In this document: positions 27,766-61,590 of the stretch, in pieces | Layout: each line of letters opens with the position of its first letter | Position numbering within the stretch: the first letter of the stretch is position 1 | Source of the DNA: Ignavibacteria bacterium | GTDB lineage: Bacteria > Bacteroidota > Ignavibacteria > Kapaibacteriales > Kapaibacteriaceae | Reading direction: 5' to 3' | NCBI GenBank assembly: GCA_016707005.1 | Contig: JADJIQ010000001.1 | Coordinates: 395,846-459,845 of the forward strand | Length of the DNA: 64,000 nt | Made by a program: the position numbers and the translations under genes | The notes under the pieces: generated by a model | Seen by the model: only the letters and a program-made list of their open reading frames with translations | Database searches by the model: none | What the model was told of the DNA's origin: nothing

Positions 27766-29223
27766 TCAACGACTGAACGTTGCCGTCTTGGTTGAAGATT
27801 CGTTCTTGATAACGAGCATGTAAACGCCCGAGGCCAATGAAGCTGTTGGGATCAACACCTCTGTAGCGGAGGAAGCAACTTCCACTGAGTACATCGTTCT
27901 ACCCTTGATGTCCACAACAGAAACGGTCCATTGTGATGGGGAGGCTTCATCCAGGCGTATCCGGAGTTCGTTTCGTGCAGGGTTCGGTCCGTAGCTGAAG
28001 CCAGCTGAAACGGCAAGATCGGACCCTTCAACAGAGGTAGGATTATGAACGGCCGGATTCTCAAGAACAACGATGCGACCGCGTTTTGCATCTCCACTTT
28101 CGTACAGAGCTGCGTAAACTCTACCGTCTTGAGCTACAGTTACATCCATGATACGCTCGGTCTCTCCCTCAAGTGAGAGGTCGATCAACTGGCCTTCATC
28201 AAGCGTCATTACATCGTCCGATGGACGCGTAGCATCAATATTGGTGACCAAACCGCCTTCATTGAGGTTGGCGACAACCAATCCTCTTCCACGTAACGTG
28301 CCGATCAGCAAGGAGTTCGTCCAGTCCGGTATTGCATTTGAGCCATAATAGGCCATTCCACTTGGAGCCTGATTCATAGTAGCAAGGGGGCACTTCATCC
28401 CCTGAGGGGCACTTGTGCAATAGCCTGCTATGTTCAACCAACCGTAATTTGAACCGGCTTCGAGGCGATTAACCTCGTCAAAAGAAAGTGGGCCCATTTC
28501 CGTAGAGTAGATCACTCCGGCGTTGACAGAAGAGGTAGGCGGGACCTGTACAAGGCCAAGTGGGTTGCGATGCCCTGAAGTATAGATGTATGAACCTGCA
28601 CTTTTGGGGAACGTTTCAGAGAAGTGGGGATTTGACGGAACGGCTTCTCCTTCAAAAGTCATACGTATGACCTTGCCATTCACGTTCTCCATCTTGTTAG
28701 GGTCGAGATTGTCGTAGGACCCAACACTCACGAGAAGCGTATTGTCAGCCAGCGTTTCCAAGGTAAGGCCCTGCGACAAAGGGACGCCTCCTGTTGCAAA
28801 GATTCGCCGTGGTTCAATAAGCTTTTCACCATCGAAACGGTACCGCTCAACAACCAACGTGTCTCCTACCCGTGTTGACGTGACAAAGACTATAGGGGTG
28901 CCTGTGGTGAAGGATGGGTGCAGGGCAATGCCATAAAGACCACCGCGCACATTGGGATCACTCGGGCTCACTGAGATGTCAACCGTAAGAACTGTTGTGG
29001 TAACCCCTGTAATAGGGTGGACACGAAGCACGTTCCCACTCACCCGGTCTGTAAGCCAAAGGTAGCCATCGTTCCCTTGAGTCATGCTGGCAGGATACCC
29101 AACGTTGTCAGCCAACAATCGCAAATTCAATTCAGTACCCTTGGGCAGGGTGATTGTGCGCTGAGCATACGAAGAGACTGCTACGCAGATCAACGATATG
29201 AGAATAAGGATCGGACGAGCCAT
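27766..29223 (-). CDS. PQQ-dependent sugar (glucose/sorbosone) dehydrogenase-like beta-propeller with T9SS C-terminal sorting domain
   Basis: Signal peptide MARPILILISLICVAVSSYAQ, GSDH-like motif ...DEVNRLEAGSNYGW, and C-terminal CTD (NPARNELRIRL...ASGVYMLVIKNESSTKTATFSR). Confidence 0.55.
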   Translation of the reverse strand: MARPILILISLICVAVSSYAQRTITLPKGTELNLRLLADNVGYPASMTQGNDGYLWLTDRVSGNVLRVHPITGVTTTVLTVDISVSPSDPNVRGGLYGIALHPSFTTGTPIVFVTSTRVGDTLVVERYRFDGEKLIEPRRIFATGGVPLSQGLTLETLADNTLLVSVGSYDNLDPNKMENVNGKVIRMTFEGEAVPSNPHFSETFPKSAGSYIYTSGHRNPLGLVQVPPTSSVNAGVIYSTEMGPLSFDEVNRLEAGSNYGWLNIAGYCTSAPQGMKCPLATMNQAPSGMAYYGSNAIPDWTNSLLIGTLRGRGLVVANLNEGGLVTNIDATRPSDDVMTLDEGQLIDLSLEGETERIMDVTVAQDGRVYAALYESGDAKRGRIVVLENPAVHNPTSVEGSDLAVSAGFSYGPNPARNELRIRLDEASPSQWTVSVVDIKGRTMYSVEVASSATEVLIPTASLASGVYMLVIKNESSTKTATFSR

Positions 29224-29289
29224 GGTCACTCCCAAAGGGATGGACGAATACATGAGTGACAATCTACAAACAAAAATCCCTCCGTACAA

Positions 29290-41194: not shown

Positions 41195-42769
41195 ATGCCC
41201 TCCAGAACCACCGATTCAGAGCGGTTTACAGAACTCCTTTCCCGGGCCGAAGTGCACGAGGAAACGGCCATTCAGAGCCTTGCAGCAGCTGTGGCTCTGG
41301 CCAGAGATAGAATGAAGGGGGCTCAGCGCGATCGATCACTCTGGCGGACACATTGGATACGTGCTGCTCTCCGGCTTGCAGAACTACTGGAACGCAAAGA
41401 GTCGGCACGTGAAGCACTTGAGGTGTTGCAACCGCTCATCCATGAACTGGATGCCTGCGATGATGCCGACCTGGTTATGCGGACCAAACAAGAATTGGGT
41501 CGATATCTGATGATCCGGGGAGATCTCGATATTGCCATGGATCTTCTCCAACAGGCATTGCGAGATGCCGAGGTACTAAATAATACAGCTGTAGCCTCCG
41601 CTGCTTCGGGCAACATCGGCATGGTGTTCTTCAACCACGGCGAGTTCGATGACGCGCTGGTATGGTTCAATAAGACCGTTGTGTTGATGCGTCAACGCGG
41701 AGACAAGGCTCGGACCGCCCTTGCCCTGCGCAGTGTTGGAATGACGCATAGCAAGAAGAAAAGCTATTCCAAGGCATTGAAGTCCTACGCAGACGCATTG
41801 AAGGAACTCAACTCGAGTACCGAGGATAACATCGACTCGCGGATAGAAATCCAGATCCGGGAGTCCATTGGCGTTGATCAACTGAACCTTGCTGATGCAA
41901 CGCAGAAAGCCACGCACTATCAAGCGGCGATAGAGGCATTTTTAGAGTGCCTTGAGCTTGCCAGACGCAATGGGCTTGACGTTTCACGTGCGGTGGCATT
42001 ACGAAATCTCGGCCAGGTCTATGCAGAGACTGACTATGCCGAACATGACATCCACAAAGCCATCGCGTTGTTTGAAGAGGCACGGCAGATCATTGAACCA
42101 AAGTCGATCCATACACTTCACTATCAGATCAACAGAGAGCTTGCATTCGCCTATGAGGCGGTAGGAGACGCCGCCCAAGCACTTGAAGCCTACAAGCGCT
42201 ACCACTCTTCTGAAAGGGCCGTCATTGACCTCGACTCTGCCTCAAAGTTGCGCTCGATCGAAGAACGTCACCGTTTTGAACGATCGCAGGAAGAGTTGCG
42301 AAGAGAACAAGAGCGCTCACTTGAGCTCGAGGCTGAAGCCCGCAAGCGCACCGCGGAACTCTCTCACCTTACTCTAGCCATTGGTGAGACTAATGCTCGT
42401 TTGCGCGATCTCTCAAGCAGGATTCGGGTACAAGCACGTATCGCCGATCAACCAACAAAGCAACTCTTCCTAAATATCATTCAGGACATCGACGCTTCAC
42501 TCGGCACTGAGATCTTCTGGAGTGGAATCGAAGAACAACTATCCAACCTCCATGGTGAGTCGCTTCAGTACCTGTCTAAACATTTTCCTTCCCTTACCCC
42601 TACCGAACGCAAGGTCTGCGCCCTCATTCGGATAGACCTTTCCTCCAAGGAGATCGCCAGACTGCTCAATACGGAACCACGTTCAATAGAAAAGTACCGC
42701 CAACGCATCCGCAAGAAACTCGGCCTCACCGCATCCGACTCGCTGTCCACATTCATTTCGTCTTTATAG
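41195..42769 (+). CDS. TPR-repeat protein with C-terminal LuxR/GerE-type HTH (transcriptional regulator)
   Basis: Multiple TPR-like helices, a coiled-coil segment, and C-terminal LTPTERKVCALIRIDLSSKEIARLLNTEPRSIEKYRQRIRKKLGL, a LuxR-type HTH. Confidence 0.7.
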   Translation: MPSRTTDSERFTELLSRAEVHEETAIQSLAAAVALARDRMKGAQRDRSLWRTHWIRAALRLAELLERKESAREALEVLQPLIHELDACDDADLVMRTKQELGRYLMIRGDLDIAMDLLQQALRDAEVLNNTAVASAASGNIGMVFFNHGEFDDALVWFNKTVVLMRQRGDKARTALALRSVGMTHSKKKSYSKALKSYADALKELNSSTEDNIDSRIEIQIRESIGVDQLNLADATQKATHYQAAIEAFLECLELARRNGLDVSRAVALRNLGQVYAETDYAEHDIHKAIALFEEARQIIEPKSIHTLHYQINRELAFAYEAVGDAAQALEAYKRYHSSERAVIDLDSASKLRSIEERHRFERSQEELRREQERSLELEAEARKRTAELSHLTLAIGETNARLRDLSSRIRVQARIADQPTKQLFLNIIQDIDASLGTEIFWSGIEEQLSNLHGESLQYLSKHFPSLTPTERKVCALIRIDLSSKEIARLLNTEPRSIEKYRQRIRKKLGLTASDSLSTFISSL

Positions 42770-42843
42770 TCATACCGTCATACCGTCATACCGTCATTTA
42801 GTCAGTTAGTCACTTAGTCATTTCTTTGTCCGGCTTTTGTCCG
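42770..42843. repeat. tandem arrays (CGTCATAC)x3, (TYAGTCA)x3, (CTTTTGTCCGG)x2
   Basis: TCATACCGTCATACCGTCATACCGTCAtttaGTCAgttaGTCActtaGTCAtttCTTTGTCCGGCTTTTGTCCGG, directly after the regulator stop and upstream of the RHS gene. Confidence 0.8.
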
Positions 42844-42906
42844 GGTGCGCCGCATTACTGCAAGTGCAAGATTCGCCTCCGAAATCACAAACACCCGGAG
42901 GGGACG

Positions 42907-45900
42907 ATGAGTATCATTGGGAGAATTTGTTTGACACTCCTGCTTGCTACGTCAGTAATGGCCGGCACAGCACAAGCGGGAGAACTTGCAGTGCCATCGA
43001 AAAGATGGAGTTCGCAGGCTATCGTGGGGCGCCAGATGGTCCTGCGGTTTCTACTCACGAACAGGAATTCGGTATATGCACTTGGTCCGGTCCAGTGGAC
43101 CATCACTGTGCGGTATCTGCTCACACAGGCCATCATGTTCCAATTGGCCGGGTCAACCTTTGTTGGGGCGGGCCAGAGTTTAGAGGCAATCCCTGAACTA
43201 GCATGGACTCCAACAATGGAGGGGGCTCACCAGGTCACGATTGAGGCAAACAGCGAGGCGAACATCACTGGTCCACAAACGCTCATGGTCAATGAAACCG
43301 TGCTCGCTTCTACGGATTGCACCACTCGCCCGGCTCTCTCACCTGGTAACTTGCTTATTGCAACCTCTAGTGGAAGTATCACTTACACAGCTCCAAAAGG
43401 ATGTTGCTACAAGGTCATGCCGTTCATGAACTCCGAGACATTCTGGGACATGACGCCGGATACGGAGCAGACCATCTCAGACGGCCAGTCTGTAACATTC
43501 ACCATGACGGTCAAAGGCAATCAGCCGATGGCCACTGCTGTTGGCTTTGCGTGGCGAGAATGTGAAAAGGGAACGCCAAAGGGTCATGACTACATTGTTG
43601 TTTCACCGCGCATGCCCCCTTCAAACGGCGATACGGTGAACGGAACAGACGGACCACATATCTGGACGTCGACCTTTGGGGACCCTGTATCGCCCCGTAC
43701 CGGGACCTTTGTTTTGCGAGAAGATCCAGATCTAGATTTTGGAGTTGGTCCTTTGCGCTTTGAGCGTTTGTATGATGGAATGGGCATCACCTCTGGTTTT
43801 ATCTCAAACCTCGGCTTCAACTGGACTCATACCTACGATGCTTCTGTGGTCGTTACGCCCACGGAACACTTGGTCCAGCTGCCTGGGTTTGAAAGAGCGG
43901 CGTTCACAAAGGTCGGCAGTACCTACACACTGCGATCCATGAGTACCAATGTTCTCACACTACAAGACCATCAGGGCGGATGGCTCCTTACAGATGCCAC
44001 ACGTTTAACGCAGTACACGTTCAACGCCCAAGGGATGTTAACAAAGATCGACGATGGTGCTATGCCCGTGTATGTCGTATGGAATGGCTCGTCACTTGCT
44101 CGTGTAACAGATTCGCTTGGCCATGTGATCACGTTCACAACAAACGACCAAGGTCGCATTATCACGGCATCGAATGGAACGCTGACATGTACCTATGCGT
44201 ATTCAACCGCCCAGGAACTCGCTTCCGTAACGAGTAGCAATGGTTTTGCTACAACGTATGCGTATGGAGCAATACCCGGACAGATCACGTCCGTGGATCG
44301 CGGTGCAGGTGTTGTTGAAGTAAGCAACACGTATGATGCTAGCGGACGTATCACAGCACAGACCGATGCAGAAGGTCGTGCCTCCACGTACACCTACAGC
44401 AGCTCTTCATCACGCTACGTGGATGGAGCAGGTGTTGCGGAAGATCATACATGGAATATGCGTGGGCAGGTAACATCCATTGGCACGGGCACAACTGCGA
44501 TGCGTTTTACCTACAACGTCAACAATAGACCATCAATGATCATATCAGCAGGGGGCGATACAACACTCTTTACGTGGCACGAAAGCGGTAGACCAGCCAG
44601 TATCAGACATGGAGCTGGCGGAGTGGAGCGGTGGGAGTACCGTCAGCGACAATGGAACGGTGCCACTGTCTGGGACTGCACAACACATATCGATGAAGTA
44701 GGACGACGGATTACCTTCGAACGTGATGGCCGAGGCTGGTTAACCGGTATTGGTGGAGCTACTCGCCCCTTTACCTATACGCGAGACACACAAACCGGAC
44801 TCATCACTGAGGCTCGTTCTATGTCGGCAACTACCATGTACACGTACGATGCGAGCGGCCACATCACCTCAATGCGCAATGCACTTGGAGCCACAACAAC
44901 GTTTATCACCAATGGTAGAGGCGATGTCACAAAGATCTCGTACCCCGATACCTCCAGTGTTTCATTTGAGTACGATGCTCACGGGAAGGTCACAAAGTAC
45001 ACCGATGAGATGGGCGCTTCAACATCATGGACGTATGACCGCTGGGGGAGGGTATCGAGTGAAACCGGTCCCGGTAGTGTAACCACAACCTACGGGATAG
45101 ACCGCACGGGCCGGATGACGAGGATGAGCAGGGCCGGTCGTGATGCCGTCACGTTTGACTACGATGATGCCGGACGTCTTACTACAACACACGTTGGTTC
45201 GAGCATTGTTACGTCGCGCGAATATGACAATGCCGGATGGTTGTCTGCCATTGCCGATGCGGAGAGTCGCAAAGAACTCTATACAAACAACGCTGACGGA
45301 TACATTACGAAACATGTTGCCCGCGCCGGAGGAATGACGGAATTCCAACACGATGGACGTGGACTGATCACTGATGTTACCACTCCAACGGGCGGTGCTG
45401 AAGCGTTTCGATTTGATGCATCGGGCGATGTGATTGACTATCGTGATGCTTCTCAACGTTTCTCGGCGTTCACATATGGTAGAACAGGCCAGATATCTCG
45501 CTGGCAGCATGGTCCGGTCAACACCGTGATGACATATGATACGCTGGGCAGGATCACCTCATGCAGAGATACGGATGGTGGTACTTGGAACTATGCATAT
45601 AACGCAATGGACTTGGTCACCAAACGAACAGATCCATCGGGTTCTTCAACAACATATGATTACGACCTCCGAGGCAGAGTTCGTTCGATCACCGATGCTC
45701 AGGGCGTGGTAACTCTGCTTCGACGCGATAAGCGGGGGAACATCATTGAACAACGTAGGGCTTCAGACCTGCGTCACACATACACATATGATGTGGCTGG
45801 ACGCCCAACGTCCACTACGCGGTCAACGAGCGCGTATGATGCAACTGGCACGCTCACGCAGACCAATGGTGTTGCGATAACATGGAACACAAATGGTACT

Positions 45901-47154
45901 ATAGCCAGCATCGGCGTAGCACCCGGAAAGAACATCACGTACACCTATGATGCAATGTTCCGTGTTAAGACCATATCAGATTGGACTGGGGCAACGATCA
46001 CACTTCAGCGCGATGCAAACGGGTCGATCATCGAAACACAACGCTCCGGAGCATTGACCACGCGCTATACGCGCGATGCGTCAGGAGCCTTGACGATGAT
46101 CGAAGAGAGTCCAACAGTTTCGATGACGATCGCTCGTTTTGCAGATGGTAGGATCTCCTCAATTCAATCGCAAGGATATCTCGATGGACCACCGTTGGAT
46201 GACGATCGTACACTGACGTATTCCTCGGCAAATACACTCATGTCGCCGATGCATCCTTCAGTAGGTCAGCTCATAACGGATGGATACGATCGAGTTGTTG
46301 GTGTCCGCAGCGGGGCCGACTCCACGATTGTTGTTCACAACGACGCACTAGGTGGTCTGACACAGTCGGTTCTGGTGAACGGACAATTGTGGGTAGTACT
46401 CTCAACTGCTCAAGACGGATTGTTTGGAATGGTGAATGTTGCCAACGGTGAGCATCGATATTTCCACTATGATGCCAGCGGCAATGTTGTCGCAGTGAGT
46501 GATGATAACGGTACCATTGTTTCGCGATTTGCCTATGGTGCGTATGGAGAGCCCCTTGCATCGGATGGTGAGACACAGATCCCGTTTCAGTTTGGAGGTC
46601 AGCGTGGCACGTGGACGCCGGGAGCTTCACAATACGTGATGGGTACACGTGTTTACGATGCCACAACAGGAAGATTCACCACTGAAGACCCTGTGGAACA
46701 GCTAGACCCACGTGCATTCAACGCTTATGCCTATGCATGGGGCGACCCAGTCAACGCTCATGATGCATCGGGTGCAACGCCCGAAGCAAACCTGCCGGCA
46801 CCAGACTGGCTCGAGGAGTCACGACGCAACAGTGATCGTGCAATAGCAAAGGCTGCAGCGATCAATGACATCATCCAGGCCGATGAGGCACAACGCGAGT
46901 TGGATCGTCAGGCAGAGCGTCGGGCGCGTGAAGTTCGTACTCGGACACGTCCAAGCGCAACACCTAAGCCATCAAAGCCAACAAAAACCAACAACCCACC
47001 CCCTCCAACTCCTGCACCGGTACCCACACCACCACCGGCACCTGCGCCCGCACCTGTTCCTGGTGGGAAACGAGCTCCAGCTGGCGGATCCAATCGTGGC
47101 AGCTACCTGCCCGATTGGGCGCGAGACATCCTCGAATATTTCATCGTTTTTTAA
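42907..47154 (+). CDS. YD-repeat / RHS-family giant secreted protein (polymorphic-toxin-like)
   Basis: Signal peptide MSIIGRICLTLLLATSVMAGTAQA. More than 25 YD repeats (e.g. YTYDASGRITAQTDAEGR). RHS core ending ...NAYAYAWGDPVNAHDASG (DPxG-type motif). The C-terminal ~125 aa are Pro-rich low complexity. Start chosen at the internal ATG at 42907. Confidence 0.85.
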   Translation: MSIIGRICLTLLLATSVMAGTAQAGELAVPSKRWSSQAIVGRQMVLRFLLTNRNSVYALGPVQWTITVRYLLTQAIMFQLAGSTFVGAGQSLEAIPELAWTPTMEGAHQVTIEANSEANITGPQTLMVNETVLASTDCTTRPALSPGNLLIATSSGSITYTAPKGCCYKVMPFMNSETFWDMTPDTEQTISDGQSVTFTMTVKGNQPMATAVGFAWRECEKGTPKGHDYIVVSPRMPPSNGDTVNGTDGPHIWTSTFGDPVSPRTGTFVLREDPDLDFGVGPLRFERLYDGMGITSGFISNLGFNWTHTYDASVVVTPTEHLVQLPGFERAAFTKVGSTYTLRSMSTNVLTLQDHQGGWLLTDATRLTQYTFNAQGMLTKIDDGAMPVYVVWNGSSLARVTDSLGHVITFTTNDQGRIITASNGTLTCTYAYSTAQELASVTSSNGFATTYAYGAIPGQITSVDRGAGVVEVSNTYDASGRITAQTDAEGRASTYTYSSSSSRYVDGAGVAEDHTWNMRGQVTSIGTGTTAMRFTYNVNNRPSMIISAGGDTTLFTWHESGRPASIRHGAGGVERWEYRQRQWNGATVWDCTTHIDEVGRRITFERDGRGWLTGIGGATRPFTYTRDTQTGLITEARSMSATTMYTYDASGHITSMRNALGATTTFITNGRGDVTKISYPDTSSVSFEYDAHGKVTKYTDEMGASTSWTYDRWGRVSSETGPGSVTTTYGIDRTGRMTRMSRAGRDAVTFDYDDAGRLTTTHVGSSIVTSREYDNAGWLSAIADAESRKELYTNNADGYITKHVARAGGMTEFQHDGRGLITDVTTPTGGAEAFRFDASGDVIDYRDASQRFSAFTYGRTGQISRWQHGPVNTVMTYDTLGRITSCRDTDGGTWNYAYNAMDLVTKRTDPSGSSTTYDYDLRGRVRSITDAQGVVTLLRRDKRGNIIEQRRASDLRHTYTYDVAGRPTSTTRSTSAYDATGTLTQTNGVAITWNTNGTIASIGVAPGKNITYTYDAMFRVKTISDWTGATITLQRDANGSIIETQRSGALTTRYTRDASGALTMIEESPTVSMTIARFADGRISSIQSQGYLDGPPLDDDRTLTYSSANTLMSPMHPSVGQLITDGYDRVVGVRSGADSTIVVHNDALGGLTQSVLVNGQLWVVLSTAQDGLFGMVNVANGEHRYFHYDASGNVVAVSDDNGTIVSRFAYGAYGEPLASDGETQIPFQFGGQRGTWTPGASQYVMGTRVYDATTGRFTTEDPVEQLDPRAFNAYAYAWGDPVNAHDASGATPEANLPAPDWLEESRRNSDRAIAKAAAINDIIQADEAQRELDRQAERRAREVRTRTRPSATPKPSKPTKTNNPPPPTPAPVPTPPPAPAPAPVPGGKRAPAGGSNRGSYLPDWARDILEYFIVF

Positions 47155-47163
47155 GGGGCAACC

Positions 47164-47619
47164 ATGAAAACCTTCATCATTCTCATCGCAGTATTCGCCA
47201 CAACACTAAGTGTTTGGTCTCAGACCTACACCTACGATGCTGCTGGCCGCATTGCCAGTGTTCGATATGCTGGTGGCAAACAAACAACCTATACCTATGA
47301 CGGTAGAGGCAACATCACCAAGCGTACTACTGCAACGGTGAACAGTGTTAGTGATGAATACGAGGTGGCATCAAAAATCACACTGGCGCCCAATCCCACA
47401 TCATCAACGATCATGGTACAGCTCGGCAACGTCGTCAGCGGCAACATTCCTCGACTCATCATTACTGATGTTGCCGGGCGCACGGTTGCCGAGCAGGCCA
47501 TGGCACGAGGTCAGTCATCGTCTACGCTGGATGTTCAACACCTATCATCCGGAATGTACATTGTGACATTCGTTGATGGTATCAATGAACAGAGGAGCCC
47601 CTTGCTTATCATGCGATAG
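47164..47619 (+). CDS. small secreted YD-repeat protein with T9SS C-terminal sorting domain
   Basis: Signal peptide MKTFIILIAVFATTLSVWSQ, two YD repeats (TYTYDAAGRIASVRYAGGKQTTYTYDGRGNITKRT), and a CTD (LAPNPTSSTIMVQL...SSGMYIVTFVDG...LLIMR). Lies 9 nt after the RHS stop. Confidence 0.7.
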   Translation: MKTFIILIAVFATTLSVWSQTYTYDAAGRIASVRYAGGKQTTYTYDGRGNITKRTTATVNSVSDEYEVASKITLAPNPTSSTIMVQLGNVVSGNIPRLIITDVAGRTVAEQAMARGQSSSTLDVQHLSSGMYIVTFVDGINEQRSPLLIMR

Positions 47620-48784
47620 GGGGCTTGTTTGAGGGCAGCTCAACCATGGACATCAACCGTGGTGCTGCGCCCCATGCATCGATCATGATCCGAACGCGAT
47701 CGGCCCATTGGTGTCGGTCGCGTTCGTTCGTATCAACAACATCCGCTCGAAGCAGAATGTTCTTTTGTGTGTGCTCCAGGGAGATGAATTCTTCCAGGCG
47801 GGCATCGTAGCCAAGAGCGCGAAGAATGTCACGTCGCACAGAGTCCGTGAGCAGATCACCCAGACGTTCCTTGGTGATCCCGTCATCAAGGAGGGGGCGG
47901 GCATAGTCCGGAACCGACTCTTTCCGGAGTTGTTTCTGCACTTCATGGTGACAGCACGGAGCAACGAGCATCCTCTTGGCCTTCATCGCAAGGCCCAGTG
48001 CAATTGCTTCATCGGTTGCCGTATCGCATGCATGCAGGGCGATCAGCAGATCACATTCCTGCGTTGGAATAACATCGCCGATGCGAGCACAGGTGAACGT
48101 GGCATTTGTCAGACCAAGCTTCTGCGCAACCATTGTACAGTGGTCAACCACGTGTTGATTTGCATCAACGCCAAGCAGATGCACATCGATACCCTCGCGT
48201 TGCAGCACATACATCAGCGAGAGCGAGAGGTAGGCCTTGCCACAACCCGCATCAACGATACGGTACGACGTCGTTTCAGAGGTGGTTGGTCGCGCCCGCT
48301 TCAAGAGGTGGTTCACCTGACGAAATTTATCGGCCATGGCCGCCTTGATCTTCCCATCCGGTGTTGCCAGATCCAGCGCCACAAGGAGTGCTGCATCATG
48401 TTCCGGAGTGAGGATCTTTGGCTTTGTGCGGTCTGCAGCAACACCTTCCCATCGTGAGCGTGAAGGGGGCAGATGTTTCGTAGAGGTTTTTACATCGCCC
48501 CCTTTATAGGTCCTAAGGATCTGCAGATCCGCTTCCGGTGTTTGCACCAGGACCTGACGAAAGGTCTTCTCCATCCACGGCATCAGCGCCGACGATGGGT
48601 CGCCCACGATCTTCAGCGCCGGATCCGTGAACGCCTGCTTTTCCGTGAATCGTTCAATGCGGATGTTCCACCCCTCTGCCGAATTCACCCCCGACACCAC
48701 TACCTTCTGCACCTCCGATCCCTTGGGAGGCTTGGAGAAGGTGGCCACAAAGGCCGAGGCAGAGGAGAGGAAAGGAGCGATCAT
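47609..48784 (-). CDS. class I SAM-dependent methyltransferase
   Basis: SAM-binding motif IVDAGCGKAYLS...LGVD...LIALHACDTATD. About 170-aa N-terminal domain of unknown function. Confidence 0.55.
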   Translation of the reverse strand: MIAPFLSSASAFVATFSKPPKGSEVQKVVVSGVNSAEGWNIRIERFTEKQAFTDPALKIVGDPSSALMPWMEKTFRQVLVQTPEADLQILRTYKGGDVKTSTKHLPPSRSRWEGVAADRTKPKILTPEHDAALLVALDLATPDGKIKAAMADKFRQVNHLLKRARPTTSETTSYRIVDAGCGKAYLSLSLMYVLQREGIDVHLLGVDANQHVVDHCTMVAQKLGLTNATFTCARIGDVIPTQECDLLIALHACDTATDEAIALGLAMKAKRMLVAPCCHHEVQKQLRKESVPDYARPLLDDGITKERLGDLLTDSVRRDILRALGYDARLEEFISLEHTQKNILLRADVVDTNERDRHQWADRVRIMIDAWGAAPRLMSMVELPSNKPPIA

Positions 48785-52133: not shown

Positions 52134-52202
52134 GATAGGGATACATTTGACTACATTGTATTACATTGTATTCAGTTGTAGTCATTTTTCCAAGGAATCA
52201 TC

Positions 52203-52475
52203 ATGCCATCAACGAGCGTCCGTCTTGATTCTGATCTTGATGCAAAATTGGCTCTTCTTGCGAGCGAGTTGGATCGAAGCAAGAGCTGGATCATTATTCA
52301 GGCACTTCGCGAGTATCTGGGCCACGCTGCGGCCGAAAGACATCGATGGGAGCAAACGCGCGAAGCTTTGGAATCCGTTTCTAAGGGTCGAGTGGTGCCA
52401 GCTGAAGATGTACACACATGGCTTCGAAGTGGCGCTAGTGATTCAGGGACGCTCTTGCCTCGAGATTCCAGGTGA
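52203..52475 (+). CDS. ribbon-helix-helix (CopG/ParD-like) antitoxin
   Basis: N-terminal RHH SVRLDSDLDAKLALLASELDRSKSWIIIQALREYL. Overlaps the downstream toxin by 4 nt. Confidence 0.7.
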   Translation: MPSTSVRLDSDLDAKLALLASELDRSKSWIIIQALREYLGHAAAERHRWEQTREALESVSKGRVVPAEDVHTWLRSGASDSGTLLPRDSR

Positions 52476-52765
52476 AGTGCGTCTACACCCACGAGGCGGT
52501 CGTTGATTTAGAGCGTATCCGGATATTTCTCATCGAGCACTATTCCGAGAGTTACAGCAGTATCATCGAAGAATTGATCGAGCGAGTTGCGAAGCTCGAG
52601 GAATTTCCACGACTAGGGTCCCGACTTGTTTCATCACCTATAGCGTTAGAGTTACGAGAGATCGTCATTGGCTCATACGTTGTTCGATATCTCATACTCG
52701 ATCAAACTGTAAGTATTCTTCGAGTATGGTATGGTAAGGAAGATCGATCGGGTATTGAGAGTTAA
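52472..52765 (+). CDS. ParE/RelE-family type II toxin
   Basis: YTHEAVVDLERI...ELREIVIGSYVVRYLILDQTVSILRVWYGKEDR is the ParE fold signature. GTG start overlapping the antitoxin stop (GTGA). Confidence 0.7.
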   Translation: MKCVYTHEAVVDLERIRIFLIEHYSESYSSIIEELIERVAKLEEFPRLGSRLVSSPIALELREIVIGSYVVRYLILDQTVSILRVWYGKEDRSGIES

Positions 52766-54066: not shown

Positions 54067-55908
54067 TCACAATCGCTCCAACCAGTAGGTTGTCATCATA
54101 CCCTTACCCTTGACCTCTATAGTTCCGCGCTCCGTAACCCCGAAACCCTGCAGCTCTTCTGCAAACGCTTGGCTGATGTGAATACGTCCGGGTTCGCTGT
54201 GTTGCTCCATGCGTGCTGCAATATTGACAGCGTCACCCCAGATGTCGTACATGGGTCGCGTAGCGCCGATAACGCCGGCAACTACGGTGCCGATGTGCAT
54301 ACCAATGCGCACGCGAACTCCATAGGTTCCATCGGTTATTGCCTTCATCATGTCCATAGCACAATGGGCTGCTCGATGCGCAGGTTGTGATACCATGTCT
54401 GGCAAATTGGCCACAGCCATGTAGGCATCGCCGATGGTTTTGATCCGAACGAGGCCGTGATGTTCGATGATCGTATCGAATTGCGTGAAGATTCGCTCGA
54501 TGAAGTCCAACACTTCCTTGGGTTCCATGTTTTCCGAGATCGTGGTAAAGCCAACGAGGTCGGCAAAGAGAATCGCGACGTCAGTGTGGACATCTGCAAT
54601 GCGGCGTTCGCCGGAGAGAATTCTTTCTGCAACCGTACCAGGCATCACTGAATGAAGAAGATCTCGCTCGCGTTGAGCGGTGCGACGTTCTTCTTCTCGC
54701 TCACGTTCTACTGTGAACAGTGCTAGTCGTTGTTGAGCTGTCGTATTCGTGACCGATGTCTCCAATTGAGTGCGCTCGAGCAAGCACTGGTAAGCACGGC
54801 TGGACGCTTGCGTGGCGGCATAGGCAACGTGGAGTTCTGCCAGCGAACGAAGCAGAGCCGACACATCTGCGCGTTGACGTGCCGCATCAGCAATTGGCTC
54901 TAGAATGTCGATCGCTTTCTGGTGATCACCTTCGCACATCAACAACCGAGCCTCTTCGATGACATGAGTTATCCGCTGCGGTTCGTTTGAAGCCATAGCA
55001 AGAGCATCTTCTGCTCTCTGAAGCCACAACCGTGCCTGTTCGATGTTACCCAACACCCGATGTGCTGCGGACAGCCCACGTCGTGCGCCGGTTGCCATTG
55101 ACCATTTGCTCTTGTCTGTGCTCAAGCGTTCAGCTACCAGCAGTTCGTGAATGGCCTGCGTCGCATCGTTGTCCTCAAGGTGCAATAGGCCAATGTTCAG
55201 CGCAGCATACGTAGCAAATCTCTCTGCATCGGCGCCGGTGTCGATCGTGCGTACCTGTTCGAAGTATGTGCGTGCCTTCTCGCGATTACCCGTTTCGCCA
55301 TACAGCACACCAAGATTTAACATGGCGATCGCTAGCGCTATAGGATTATCCAACGTCGTGAACGTTTCATAGGCCCTGAACTGCATGCGTACCGCATCGG
55401 CTAGGAGCCCCTTTCGACTATAGATCGTAGCTAACTCGGTAAGGGCATTGCCCAAGGCTGCAGGGTAGGGAAGTGCGCCAAGAAGAGCAACGGCGTGTTC
55501 ACCGTGTGTTTGGGCATCGTCATATCGACCTTGTTGCGTTGCGCAGAGTGCCAGTGTGCGAAGTGCGCGTGCCTGATAGCCAACATCCGTCATGGTATCT
55601 ACATCGAGGTCTTGCATCAAATCGAGTGCCTCGTCTACCTCCGTGGATTCCGCCAAGAACTGCGTCCAACCCGTCACCATTCGGTAGTGTAGATCGTACG
55701 GTCTTTTGGAAGGGGGCAGTGCAGTGAACGAAGCAAACGCTGACCGTGCACCTTGCAGATTCCGTTGAGAACACTGCAGTTCCAAATTGAGCCATAGTTG
55801 CAACCACCATGGCTCAGGGTCGGCGGGCATTTCCGCTACCAGTCTATCCAGCATAGGCTTGCGGATACCGAGGATAGCATCGTCGATCTGTTGGAGCATA
55901 GTTGACAT
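54067..55908 (-). CDS. TPR-repeat class III adenylate/guanylate cyclase
   Basis: N-terminal ~400 aa of TPR-like repeats. C-terminal CYCc domain (VAILFADLVGFTTISE...IKTIGDAYMAV...GIHIGTVVAGVIG...YDIWGDAVNIAARME). Confidence 0.8.
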   Translation of the reverse strand: MSTMLQQIDDAILGIRKPMLDRLVAEMPADPEPWWLQLWLNLELQCSQRNLQGARSAFASFTALPPSKRPYDLHYRMVTGWTQFLAESTEVDEALDLMQDLDVDTMTDVGYQARALRTLALCATQQGRYDDAQTHGEHAVALLGALPYPAALGNALTELATIYSRKGLLADAVRMQFRAYETFTTLDNPIALAIAMLNLGVLYGETGNREKARTYFEQVRTIDTGADAERFATYAALNIGLLHLEDNDATQAIHELLVAERLSTDKSKWSMATGARRGLSAAHRVLGNIEQARLWLQRAEDALAMASNEPQRITHVIEEARLLMCEGDHQKAIDILEPIADAARQRADVSALLRSLAELHVAYAATQASSRAYQCLLERTQLETSVTNTTAQQRLALFTVEREREEERRTAQRERDLLHSVMPGTVAERILSGERRIADVHTDVAILFADLVGFTTISENMEPKEVLDFIERIFTQFDTIIEHHGLVRIKTIGDAYMAVANLPDMVSQPAHRAAHCAMDMMKAITDGTYGVRVRIGMHIGTVVAGVIGATRPMYDIWGDAVNIAARMEQHSEPGRIHISQAFAEELQGFGVTERGTIEVKGKGMMTTYWLERL

Positions 55909-59919: not shown

Positions 59920-61590
59920 ATGTCATACTCCGTAACTCTTATGGCGCATGAGTCTACTCTCTATGCCGGTACTCATCGTGTTTGCTCATCAACAAATCAG
60001 GGGAATGATTGGACAGATAGTGGAAGTCTCCTCTCAAGAACTAGAGTTGTATCCTTTGCGAAAATTGCAACGCATCTGTTTGCGGCAACAAATGGGGTGG
60101 GGGTGATACATTCGCCCGACGATGGCATTACATGGGATACGGTAGACAATGGCTTACCTGATACTACAGTCAACACTCTCCTCGCAAGTGGTAATGCTCT
60201 GTTTGCGGGTACACGGTCAAGGGGAGTGTATGTCTCTTCAAACTATGGGGCGAGCTGGAGTCCTTCCAATAATGGTTTGACAGACACCACAGTTGCGTCG
60301 TTGATCGAGCATGGCAAGTATCTTTTTGCCTCAACGCCTAACCAGGGAATCCTCCGCTCATCTGATCAAGGTGCTTCATGGACAGAAGCCAATATTGGAT
60401 TTTCAGGCACATCTTTAGTTCGCTCCATACTGAGCAGGGGAGAATATCTTTTTGCTGGAACCGACAAGGGGGGTGCATACCGACATAATGGGGTGAATTG
60501 GCGTTCAACAAAGGTTGGTCTTCAAACTGAGTATGCCAGCTCTTTGGCGGTTCAAGACTCAGTCTTGTTTGTTGGAGTCTTTCGCGTGCAGGCTGCGAAT
60601 CAACGAGGTGGCGTATTCCGTTCCTCCGACGATGGTGATTCGTGGCGTCCATACAACACTGGCCCTAGCAGTGATGTTTGGAGCCTAGCCGTCAACGATG
60701 CAAATGTGTTCGCCGGAACGCAGATTGGTGTGTATCGTTCCACTGATTATGGAGATAATTGGAACGCTGCCAATGGCCCAATTAAAGGCGGAATGGGGAT
60801 AGAAATGAGATATCAGTACATCTTATCTCTCGCTTCTATAGGGACAACGATATTTGCGGGGGGAAATAGAGATGTCTTTGTATCTACAAACTACGGATCG
60901 ACTTGGAGTTTTGTGAGATTCAATGTACCCACGGACAGAATTAGGTCTCTGGCTGCTATTGGAACAAATATGTTTGCTACAACCGTTAACGGGGGAGTGT
61001 TTCGTATCTCAGGAAGCGGTGATACCTACACCGCGGAATCGGCTGGTCTATCTGGGAAGACCGTAAACTCTCTTGCAGTTAGTGGCACGAATCTCTTTGC
61101 AGGAACGGTTGATGGGGGAGTCTTTCTGACAACTGACATGGGTAAAACGTGGACGTCTATTAATGATGGCCTCCCTTATTCGTCGGTTACTGCATTAGCA
61201 ATACATAAAGGAAATCTATATGCGGGTGCAGCATCAATCGTCGAGTTCTGGCATGGCGCGGGTGTCTTTGTTCGCCCCCTTTCTGAGATTGTAACAACGG
61301 TAAATGAAACATCCGCAAGCGAGTTGACTCCATTGCTTCAATCTCAGAACTTTCCGAATCCCTTCACTAATGTGACAGACATTGAATTCACGTTGAGAGA
61401 ATCTGCACACGTTACCATTACGATCTACAATGCACTCGGTGCAATTGTGCAGACAATAGCGTCCAAGGAATTTCCGGCAGGTCACAACACTGCAACATGG
61501 GATGCATCCTCCCATGAAGTCGGTCTGTATTTCTATCGCATAATTGTTGGGTCGCAAAGTGAGACCAAGAGTCTCTTGATCATGCGTTAG
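59920..61590 (+). CDS. BNR/Asp-box repeat beta-propeller protein, C-terminal part with T9SS sorting domain
   Basis: At least 10 further SxDxGxxW repeats. C-terminal CTD FPNPFTNVTDIEFTL...GLYFYRIIVGSQSETKSLLIMR. Continuous with the 59436 ORF if one A is removed from the A5 run at 59909-59913. Confidence 0.75.
   Translation: MSYSVTLMAHESTLYAGTHRVCSSTNQGNDWTDSGSLLSRTRVVSFAKIATHLFAATNGVGVIHSPDDGITWDTVDNGLPDTTVNTLLASGNALFAGTRSRGVYVSSNYGASWSPSNNGLTDTTVASLIEHGKYLFASTPNQGILRSSDQGASWTEANIGFSGTSLVRSILSRGEYLFAGTDKGGAYRHNGVNWRSTKVGLQTEYASSLAVQDSVLFVGVFRVQAANQRGGVFRSSDDGDSWRPYNTGPSSDVWSLAVNDANVFAGTQIGVYRSTDYGDNWNAANGPIKGGMGIEMRYQYILSLASIGTTIFAGGNRDVFVSTNYGSTWSFVRFNVPTDRIRSLAAIGTNMFATTVNGGVFRISGSGDTYTAESAGLSGKTVNSLAVSGTNLFAGTVDGGVFLTTDMGKTWTSINDGLPYSSVTALAIHKGNLYAGAASIVEFWHGAGVFVRPLSEIVTTVNETSASELTPLLQSQNFPNPFTNVTDIEFTLRESAHVTITIYNALGAIVQTIASKEFPAGHNTATWDASSHEVGLYFYRIIVGSQSETKSLLIMR

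Follow-up and report, generated by a model that had tools for sequence, protein, structure and literature searches.

Type IX secretion system (T9SS) cargo is currently recognized only by a C-terminal sorting domain (CTD) on the same polypeptide. Several research teams have come across secreted toxins that lack a CTD and are encoded beside genes for CTD-bearing cargo, and they could not account for the exit of these toxins from the cell. Can a sorting tag act in trans? The question is raised by a locus in the genome of an Ignavibacteria bacterium (assembly GCA_016707005.1, contig JADJIQ010000001.1, positions 395,846 to 459,845 of the forward strand), a stretch of 64,000 nucleotides (nt) that is referred to here, as a whole, as the window. 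In this locus, a gene for a giant RHS protein that has no CTD is followed directly by a gene for a protein of 151 amino acids (aa), the mini-protein, in which two YD repeats stand between a signal peptide and a type A CTD (the mini YD-CTD architecture). We report that the mini-protein represents a small family, that its linkage to RHS genes in every inspected context argues for a dedicated partnership, and that it might, tentatively, provide its partner with a secretion tag or surface anchor.

A minimal YD-repeat protein with a sorting domain

The mini-protein gene occupies 47164..47619 on the forward strand and runs from an ATG through 151 codons to its stop, as evidenced by open reading frame (ORF) translation and by matches to Pfam and NCBIfam models. 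The nearest in-frame stop before it is the TAA of the RHS gene (47152-47154), and the ATG at 47164 is the first possible start. The 9-nt spacer between the two genes (GGGGCAACC; 47155..47163, forward strand) contains a Shine-Dalgarno-like AGGGG and is in frame with the RHS gene here by chance.

Four segments can be distinguished in the protein, all encoded on the forward strand. The first, aa 1 to 19 (MKTFIILIAVFATTLSVWS, followed by Gln; 47164..47220), comprises Lys2, a hydrophobic stretch at aa 3 to 17, and the sequence VWS directly before the Gln, with a Kyte-Doolittle value of 1.69 over aa 1 to 19; together with the AxA site that precedes Gln or Glu in the family, these features identify it, by inspection, as a predicted Sec/signal peptidase I signal peptide. 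The second segment, aa 20 to 62 (47221..47349), begins at the first mature residue and holds the two YD repeats, which were scored with PF05593 and TIGR01643. Pfam RHS_repeat matches in two stretches within aa 24 to 57 (E=1.7e-13; 51.1 bits, cutoff 22), and YD_repeat_2x (TIGR01643) covers aa 24 to 62 (35.2 bits, cutoff 15.8). A variable linker follows at aa 63 to 74 (47350..47385); it is the least conserved segment in two alignments and the region in which CTD cleavage would be expected. Finally, aa 75 to 151 (47386..47616) form the type A T9SS CTD, for which PF18962 and TIGR04183 were used: Por_Secre_tail (PF18962) matches aa 76 to 142 (E=4.2e-11; 43.4 bits, cutoff 27), stopping 9 residues short of the end of the protein, and the NCBIfam type A sorting-domain model TIGR04183 scores 38.4 bits (cutoff 23). 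A sequence-only reading of this DNA had described an ORF of 151 aa lying 9 nt after the RHS stop codon, with a signal peptide, two YD repeats, and a Por_Secre_tail CTD, next to an RHS protein without a CTD. The coordinates and translation agree with that description, inspection and the Pfam and NCBIfam matches bear out the three parts of the small protein, and neither Pfam nor NCBIfam detects a CTD in the RHS neighbor.

With a signal peptide and a CTD, the mini-protein has the predicted features of T9SS type A cargo. After the predicted removal of the CTD, its passenger is about 52 aa long and contains nothing beyond the two YD repeats. Domain searches and the predicted strand pattern revealed no Rhs-associated core (TIGR03696), no autoproteolytic motif, and no closed shell in the mini-protein, all of which belong to the neighboring RHS gene instead; because it has neither shell nor core, it is best classed as a YD-repeat-containing protein and not as an RHS protein. 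An AlphaFold2 model built from a four-sequence alignment is of low confidence (pLDDT 55), and we used its strand pattern alone, which consists of four β-strands at aa 20 to 58 and a seven-strand sandwich for the CTD. A lone four-stranded YD sheet of this kind would have no obvious hydrophobic core, which would argue for the need of a partner.

A small, undescribed family

A search with the single mini-protein sequence returned three close orthologues only. More divergent copies were reached via the RHS partner (locus L011) and by a scan of 185,579 species-representative genomes (locus L016). A profile search then gathered about 17 clusters of 146 to 173 aa, all with RHS_repeat plus Por_Secre_tail, below which YD-only fragments alone were found. 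Two weak matches to the query (P0004 and P0005) were rejected as unrelated YD-only proteins without a CTD. An HMMER profile search of 1.84 billion representatives returned giant multi-repeat RHS proteins, and the small proteins among its matches were those of the query's own cluster only. A metagenome scan likewise yielded mostly large RHS genes, with L068 (98% identity) as the sole full-length relative.

The 18 sequences that could be aligned share one plan, in which a signal peptide ending in AxA is followed by [Q/E]-x-[Y/F]-x-Y-D-x-x-G-R...Y-x-Y-D-x-x-G-N, a variable linker of 10 to 15 aa, and the CTD. Exactly two YD repeats are present in 18/18 members. Conservation within the protein is highest in the YD block, with Y24, D25, G28, R29, Y35, Y43, Y45, D46, G49, N50, and T56 invariant across the alignment.

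The family occurs in Ignavibacteria- and Kapaibacteria-like genomes, under names that include "Candidatus Kapaibacterium sp." and "Ignavibacteriae bacterium," and the host organisms are abundant, uncultured bacteria of activated sludge. The sequence-only reading had suggested a comparison with Bacteroidota, which comes close, NCBI having labeled the source an Ignavibacteria bacterium MAG (metagenome-assembled genome). Some of its clusters already bear the title "T9SS type A sorting domain-containing protein." Loci L014, L016, and L011/L017 show Ignavibacteria-type synteny inside MAGs named Candidatus Didemnitutus, Bradyrhizobiaceae, and Hyphomicrobiales; these contigs are probably misbinned. 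Neither Pfam nor NCBIfam has a model dedicated to the mini YD-CTD architecture, and a literature search found no paper on it. The family is thus a small undescribed one, in line with the sequence-only reading, which had considered such a module to be new; that claim does not extend to the broader theme of a CTD-cargo gene linked to a CTD-less Rhs or toxin gene, which has precedents, discussed below.

A genuine gene

Could so small an ORF, so close behind a large one, be evolutionary debris or an artifact? An identical mini-protein has been called on 19 contigs, four NCBI wastewater MAGs among them, and three orthologues (90%, 79%, and 75% identity) likewise have a length of exactly 151 aa. The ratio of nonsynonymous to synonymous substitutions (dN/dS), determined against two orthologues by the Nei-Gojobori method, is 0.17 to 0.28 at a dS of 0.31 to 0.59 and therefore points to purifying selection on the protein. 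This pattern of substitution indicates clear selective constraint and a genuine, translated gene.

Debris could take several forms, namely, an orphan rhs fragment, a functionless product of the fission of an RHS-CTD gene, or part of a read-through or frameshift fusion. The two ORFs of the window do share a reading frame with one TAA between them, which would suit a read-through or recent fission artifact. The spacer measures 9 nt here, though, whereas it is 8 nt in L002-L004 and 17 to 73 nt in other lineages, and both artifacts are ruled out because the frame relation between the two genes is lost in relatives with these differing spacers. RHS proteins with a fused CTD exist, as a fission origin would lead one to expect, but the CTD of the mini-protein is no closer to them than to unrelated CTDs in the window, with 22 to 28% identity throughout.

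The sequence-only reading had also raised the possibility of an orphan RHS fragment that acquired its own secretion signals. Orphan rhs-CT fragments are 5'-truncated copies of the 3' end of the rhs core that carry a different C-terminal region, and they usually have neither translation nor secretion signals of their own. This idea did not survive the comparison, given the purifying selection (dN/dS well below 1), an architecture and length fixed over about 17 clusters, and the absence of any homology to an Rhs core or C-terminal region, and also because every family member has its own ATG and signal peptide. Moreover, the best match to the mini-protein within the adjoining RHS protein reaches just 48% over 52 aa. 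Taken together, debris or an artifact of any of these kinds seems very improbable, and an ancient fission, had there been one, would leave the present function of the mini-protein unchanged.

Pairing with RHS genes across genomes

The sequence-only reading suggested asking whether an RHS gene followed by a mini YD-CTD gene recurs elsewhere, and it does. The contexts that we inspected were the window, L001, L002-L004, the P0002 contig, L013/L015, L014, L011/L017, L016, L150-L153, and L148/L149. An RHS gene encoding 1,413 to 1,606 aa lies directly upstream on the same strand in 11/11 sequence-distinct contexts with upstream DNA, one of which has unrelated flanks. No gene intervenes between the two in the inspected loci, where the spacers measure 8 to 73 nt, and the contexts include lineages whose RHS proteins are just 27 to 40% identical. 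This unbroken association therefore indicates that the mini-protein is a dedicated RHS partner and not a random fragment, and it suggests that the two genes would be co-transcribed as one unit.

Most loci share a common gene order, nuoD - spoU - (M61 peptidase) - TPR/LuxR - RHS - mini - ... - alaS - DUF3127. Departures from it are instructive. A different gene lies downstream of the pair in L002, and L151 keeps the pair without the TPR-LuxR regulator. In L148/L149, the pair sits in an unrelated neighborhood (integrase, GmrSD, and type I restriction-modification genes), with the mini-protein gene 37 nt after an RHS gene whose product has a different N terminus and a different tail. These contexts therefore single out the RHS-mini pair itself as the conserved unit, and the retention of the pair in L148 despite the differing RHS N terminus and tail points to the YD shell as the common denominator.

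One further observation concerns the metagenomic contig L001 (positions 1-2560), where the RHS orthologue is split by a stop codon into ORFs corresponding to RHS aa 563 to 862 and 876 to 1416, through either pseudogenization or assembly error. The downstream mini-protein gene is intact beside the interrupted RHS gene.

The partner RHS protein

The partner gene (42907..47154, forward strand) encodes 1,415 aa, and its true start is the ATG at 42907. The product has a signal peptide ending in AQA before GELA, two Ig-like modules, a DUF6531 domain, a YD shell with many RHS repeats, an Rhs core, and a tail. The shell looks complete, spanning about 1,000 aa from DUF6531 to the core. Rhs_assc_core covers aa 1210 to 1289 (46534..46773, forward strand; TIGR03696, 53 bits) and ends in ..YAYAWGDPVNAHDASG, a motif kept in orthologues.

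The N-terminal region, aa 25 to 290 (42979-43780, forward strand), contains four invariant Cys and two predicted β-sandwich modules, and it is the best-conserved part between lineages (about 45% identity versus 23 to 34% in the shell). It matches no known domain. AlphaFold2 modeled the N-terminal 266 aa as two tandem β-sandwiches at modest confidence (pLDDT 57), and a Foldseek search of this model against the PDB returned generic tandem Ig-like matches only (TM 0.2 to 0.25).

The tail consists of 126 aa (aa 1290 to 1415; 46774..47151, forward strand) and comprises a charged helix, a Pro-rich spacer, the sequence RGSYLP, and an amphipathic end, DILEYFIVF. The same tail type (a charged helical segment, PPPxP, a spacer rich in Gly, Ser, and Pro, RG-Y-P, and an aromatic, amphipathic end) is found in seven syntenic lineages. 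Longer tails in L011, L016, and L151 carry a Gly-zipper-like GAFISGWIEG that is deleted in the window.

Since small genes directly past an rhs stop codon usually encode immunity proteins, the mini-protein might be taken for the immunity protein of the RHS C-terminal tail. Its position and small size are what commend this idea, and the tail itself is what opposes it. No Pfam domain is matched after the core motif (..DP[VI]N..D..G), and the tail is not polymorphic, being 74 to 92% identical in close relatives and as conserved as the remainder of the RHS protein. A toxin-less and conserved tail therefore rules out the immunity reading of the downstream gene, or leaves it at most an extremely remote one. 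In addition, the mini-protein stays unchanged in L148, whose tail is of an entirely different type, it matches no immunity family in Pfam or NCBIfam, and it is made up of YD repeats and an export tag, the latter of which would take it out of the producer's periplasm. These features make the partner a vertically inherited, toxin-less cocoon protein with predicted secretion, and its conservation hints at a nonweapon, teneurin-like role for bacterial RHS cocoons.

How the mini-protein might serve its partner

Evidence for T9SS cargo is not confined to the mini-protein. The window also encodes a glucose/sorbosone dehydrogenase (GSDH; 27766-29289, reverse strand) and a BNR/sortilin-like protein (59920-61590, forward strand), each with a type A CTD (Por_Secre_tail), and related loci encode CTD-tagged arylsulfotransferases. 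Por sorting domains have been described for Ignavibacteriae (PMC3534657), and a possible T9SS in these bacteria was noted on BLAST evidence (PMC5837995). Furthermore, RHS shells are plausible T9SS cargo because RHS proteins with a CTD in cis exist. Two of these, P0072 and P0075, are about 1,930 aa long and end in a type A CTD; their core motif lies near aa 1213 (..NNPANGVDPWGL in P0072) and is followed by an extension of about 700 aa with DUF7619.

On this basis, we propose, as a tentative model, that the RHS cocoon receives a secretion tag or surface anchor in trans from the mini-protein. The proposal is made because both proteins have Sec-type signal peptides, the CTD is on the mini-protein alone, the passenger is made of YD repeats, and the two genes strictly co-occur. 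Both proteins would be exported by Sec to the periplasm, where the four-stranded YD sheet of the mini-protein would dock on its RHS partner by pairing, edge to edge, with strands of the YD β-shell. The CTD of the mini-protein would then engage the T9SS and take the complex along. PorU-type processing would remove the CTD, leaving the YD module with its bound RHS cocoon on the cell surface. Alternatively, the mini-protein might reach the surface first and, once anchored there, tether the RHS protein. A trans tag would have a rationale, as the C terminus of an RHS protein would normally be sealed in the cocoon and cleaved and hence would be a poor site for a CTD. The more specific version of the model, in which the folded, CTD-less 150-kDa cocoon would ride piggyback through the T9SS on the mini-protein, its adaptor, and be tethered by it to the surface, is somewhat doubtful.

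Several points weigh against a tag or anchor. A folded RHS cocoon would be bulky for passage through the SprA/Sov translocon, and to our knowledge, T9SS hitchhiking has been demonstrated for no cargo. The monomer model of the mini-protein is, at pLDDT 55, a low-confidence one, and the invariant residues of the YD block are mostly generic YD consensus, with no partner-specific interface evident. The divergence of the mini-protein correlates with that of the RHS protein in a mirror-tree comparison (r=0.68), but shared phylogeny alone would give the same result. Finally, the clade is narrow, with 4 full-length loci among the 185,579 species representatives.

In a different explanation, the mini-protein is co-regulated with the RHS gene and exported alone by the T9SS. 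The resulting lipid- or lipopolysaccharide-anchored 50-aa YD peptide would offer RHS cocoons a dock, cap, or decoy; the cocoons would come to the surface by other means (vesicles, lysis, or an unrecognized RHS signal) and would not be carried by the mini-protein. With such a peptide, no large folded cocoon would have to move through the T9SS, and the conserved pairing, the CTD on the mini-protein only, and the YD-repeat passenger fit it equally well. The two N-terminal Ig-like modules of the RHS protein, typical of surface or extracellular proteins, are also in keeping with it. On the other hand, no other export route for the RHS protein is visible, and the spacing of 8 to 73 nt together with strict co-occurrence suggests stoichiometric co-assembly over a later encounter. 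We therefore consider a separately exported dock or decoy unlikely. The sequence-only reading had suggested both an adaptor that takes the RHS protein along through the T9SS and an anchored decoy or plug, and the two ideas agree with all observations made here.

If the adaptor model is true, T9SS cargo would be shown to be targeted in trans, the predicted secretome of Bacteroidota-related phyla would grow, and a minimal docking handle for RHS shells, about 50 aa long, would become available. Piggybacking, if real, would be the first case of cargo hitchhiking in type IX secretion and would yield a teneurin-like, nontoxin surface cocoon in bacteria.

Upstream region, regulator, and neighboring genes

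A conserved cis-element, TGTCCGGcTTTTGTCCGGgtg, lies upstream of the RHS gene at 42827..42847 (forward strand) and corresponds to TGTCCGG-N4-TGTCCGG[G/T]TG, with two TGTCCGG copies 11 bp apart. An exact 12-mer, TTTGTCCGG[G/T]TG, occupies 42836-42847, 60 nt before the RHS ATG, with the second TGTCCGG 11 bp upstream. Each family locus with a TPR-LuxR regulator nearby has one copy of the 12-mer, located upstream of the RHS gene on the coding strand. Besides the window, the loci with the cis-element are L005-L008, L011, L013, L016, L148-L150, L152, and L153, the nonsyntenic L148/L149 included. The 12-mer is missing from L151, which has no TPR-LuxR regulator, and its background frequency is 3 matches in 136 unrelated loci. 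The element is probably the operator of the TPR-LuxR regulator or the promoter of the operon, and the distribution of the 12-mer fits one regulated promoter/operator that would serve the RHS-mini operon.

Directly upstream of the cis-element, Tandem Repeats Finder detected an 8-nt variable-number tandem repeat (GTCATACC x3.6 and GTCATTTA x3.9; 42769..42823, no strand assigned). MAGs that are almost identical differ in their number of copies (3 versus 8); in L013, a related unit is repeated about 12 times, and in L011, there is a 9-nt repeat x6. Such variation may tune expression by slipped-strand events.

The regulator itself (41195..42769, forward strand) is, by its Pfam matches, a predicted cytoplasmic protein with TPR, coiled-coil, and LuxR/GerE helix-turn-helix regions and no transmembrane segment. 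It is linked to the pair in L011, L013, L016, L150, L152, and L153 and lies 3 kb away in L148. Its presence invites another explanation, namely, that the mini-protein is a PorA-like signaling or feedback element that reports T9SS or RHS status to the operon via the TPR-LuxR regulator. PorA, a small protein with a signal peptide, one domain, and a CTD, is regulatory and not enzymatic (PMC7712824), and both the regulator and the conserved operator-like motif accompany the pair. Nevertheless, a regulator with neither a signal peptide nor a membrane segment would have no direct way to sense proteins in the periplasm or at the surface, L151 retains the pair but has neither regulator nor motif, and the YD-repeat passenger would be left unexplained. 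A signaling role of this kind is thus quite improbable.

At its 3' end, the mini-protein gene overlaps by 11 nt (47609-47619) with a convergent Methyltransf_32 gene (47609-48784, reverse strand), as it does in L013, and the overlap therefore leaves no room for a terminator. Farther along, a RelB/ParE toxin-antitoxin pair is encoded at about 52200-52760 (15048-15610 in L005), downstream of alaS and DUF3127, and a TPR-guanylate cyclase gene lies at 54067-55908 (reverse strand).

Comparison with known systems

Classical Rhs toxin-immunity modules (e.g., T6SS [type VI secretion system] Rhs and WapA) resemble the locus in DUF6531, the YD shell, the core motif, and a small gene close behind. Unlike them, the locus in the window has no PAAR or VgrG, no toxin domain, a nonpolymorphic tail, and a downstream gene that does not encode an immunity protein, and the pair sits in a housekeeping-type syntenic setting (nuoD...alaS). 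P0072 and P0075 resemble the locus in that an RHS shell and a type A CTD are united in one system. In these proteins, the CTD stands in cis, after a post-core extension of about 700 aa, whereas in the window it belongs to a separate mini-protein that has a signal peptide of its own.

For the proposed docking, there is a structural precedent in a two-chain YD shell. Busby et al. in 2013 and Meusch et al. in 2014 reportedly described a YD/RHS cocoon that is assembled from two polypeptides, TcB and TcC, via a continuous β-sheet. Each of TcB and TcC makes up much of that shell, whereas the mini-protein would add four strands to a seemingly complete one, and the secretion route differs.

Among characterized minimal CTD proteins, PorA is the closest to the mini-protein. 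Both have a Sec signal peptide, a passenger, and a C-terminal type A sorting domain, and PorA is a bona fide CTD protein with a very small nonenzymatic passenger and an accessory role (PMC7712824). The likeness is one of architecture only, and the published description sets the two apart: PorA (PGN_0123) has an Ig/FimH-like domain and is reported as restricted to Porphyromonas (PMC7712824), whereas the passenger here is about 52 aa, consists of two YD repeats, and is encoded by a strictly RHS-linked gene.

The nearest parallels in gene arrangement come from two groups of toxin loci. First, in Porphyromonas gingivalis 381, PGN_1817/PGN_1818 combine a gene for CTD-bearing cargo with an Rhs gene whose product has no CTD (PMC6775972). 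Second, in the TANFOR toxin loci of Bacteroidetes, a CTD-less toxin gene adjoins a CTD-cargo gene (PMC7073777). The authors of both studies proposed a mechanistic link to the T9SS as a hypothesis (PMC6775972, PMC7073777). As in the window, a signal-peptide-bearing, CTD-less Rhs or toxin gene stands beside a T9SS-cargo gene. The CTD gene of those loci lies upstream, encodes a large SprB/Fn3-type protein, or both, whereas in the window it is downstream, minimal, and YD based. Also, their partners are polymorphic toxins with immunity genes, in contrast to the conserved, toxin-less, and vertically inherited RHS protein described here. The RHS-mini pair is an unusually clean case of this arrangement, in which a sorting tag is joined to two copies of the partner's own repeat and the pairing is strictly conserved.

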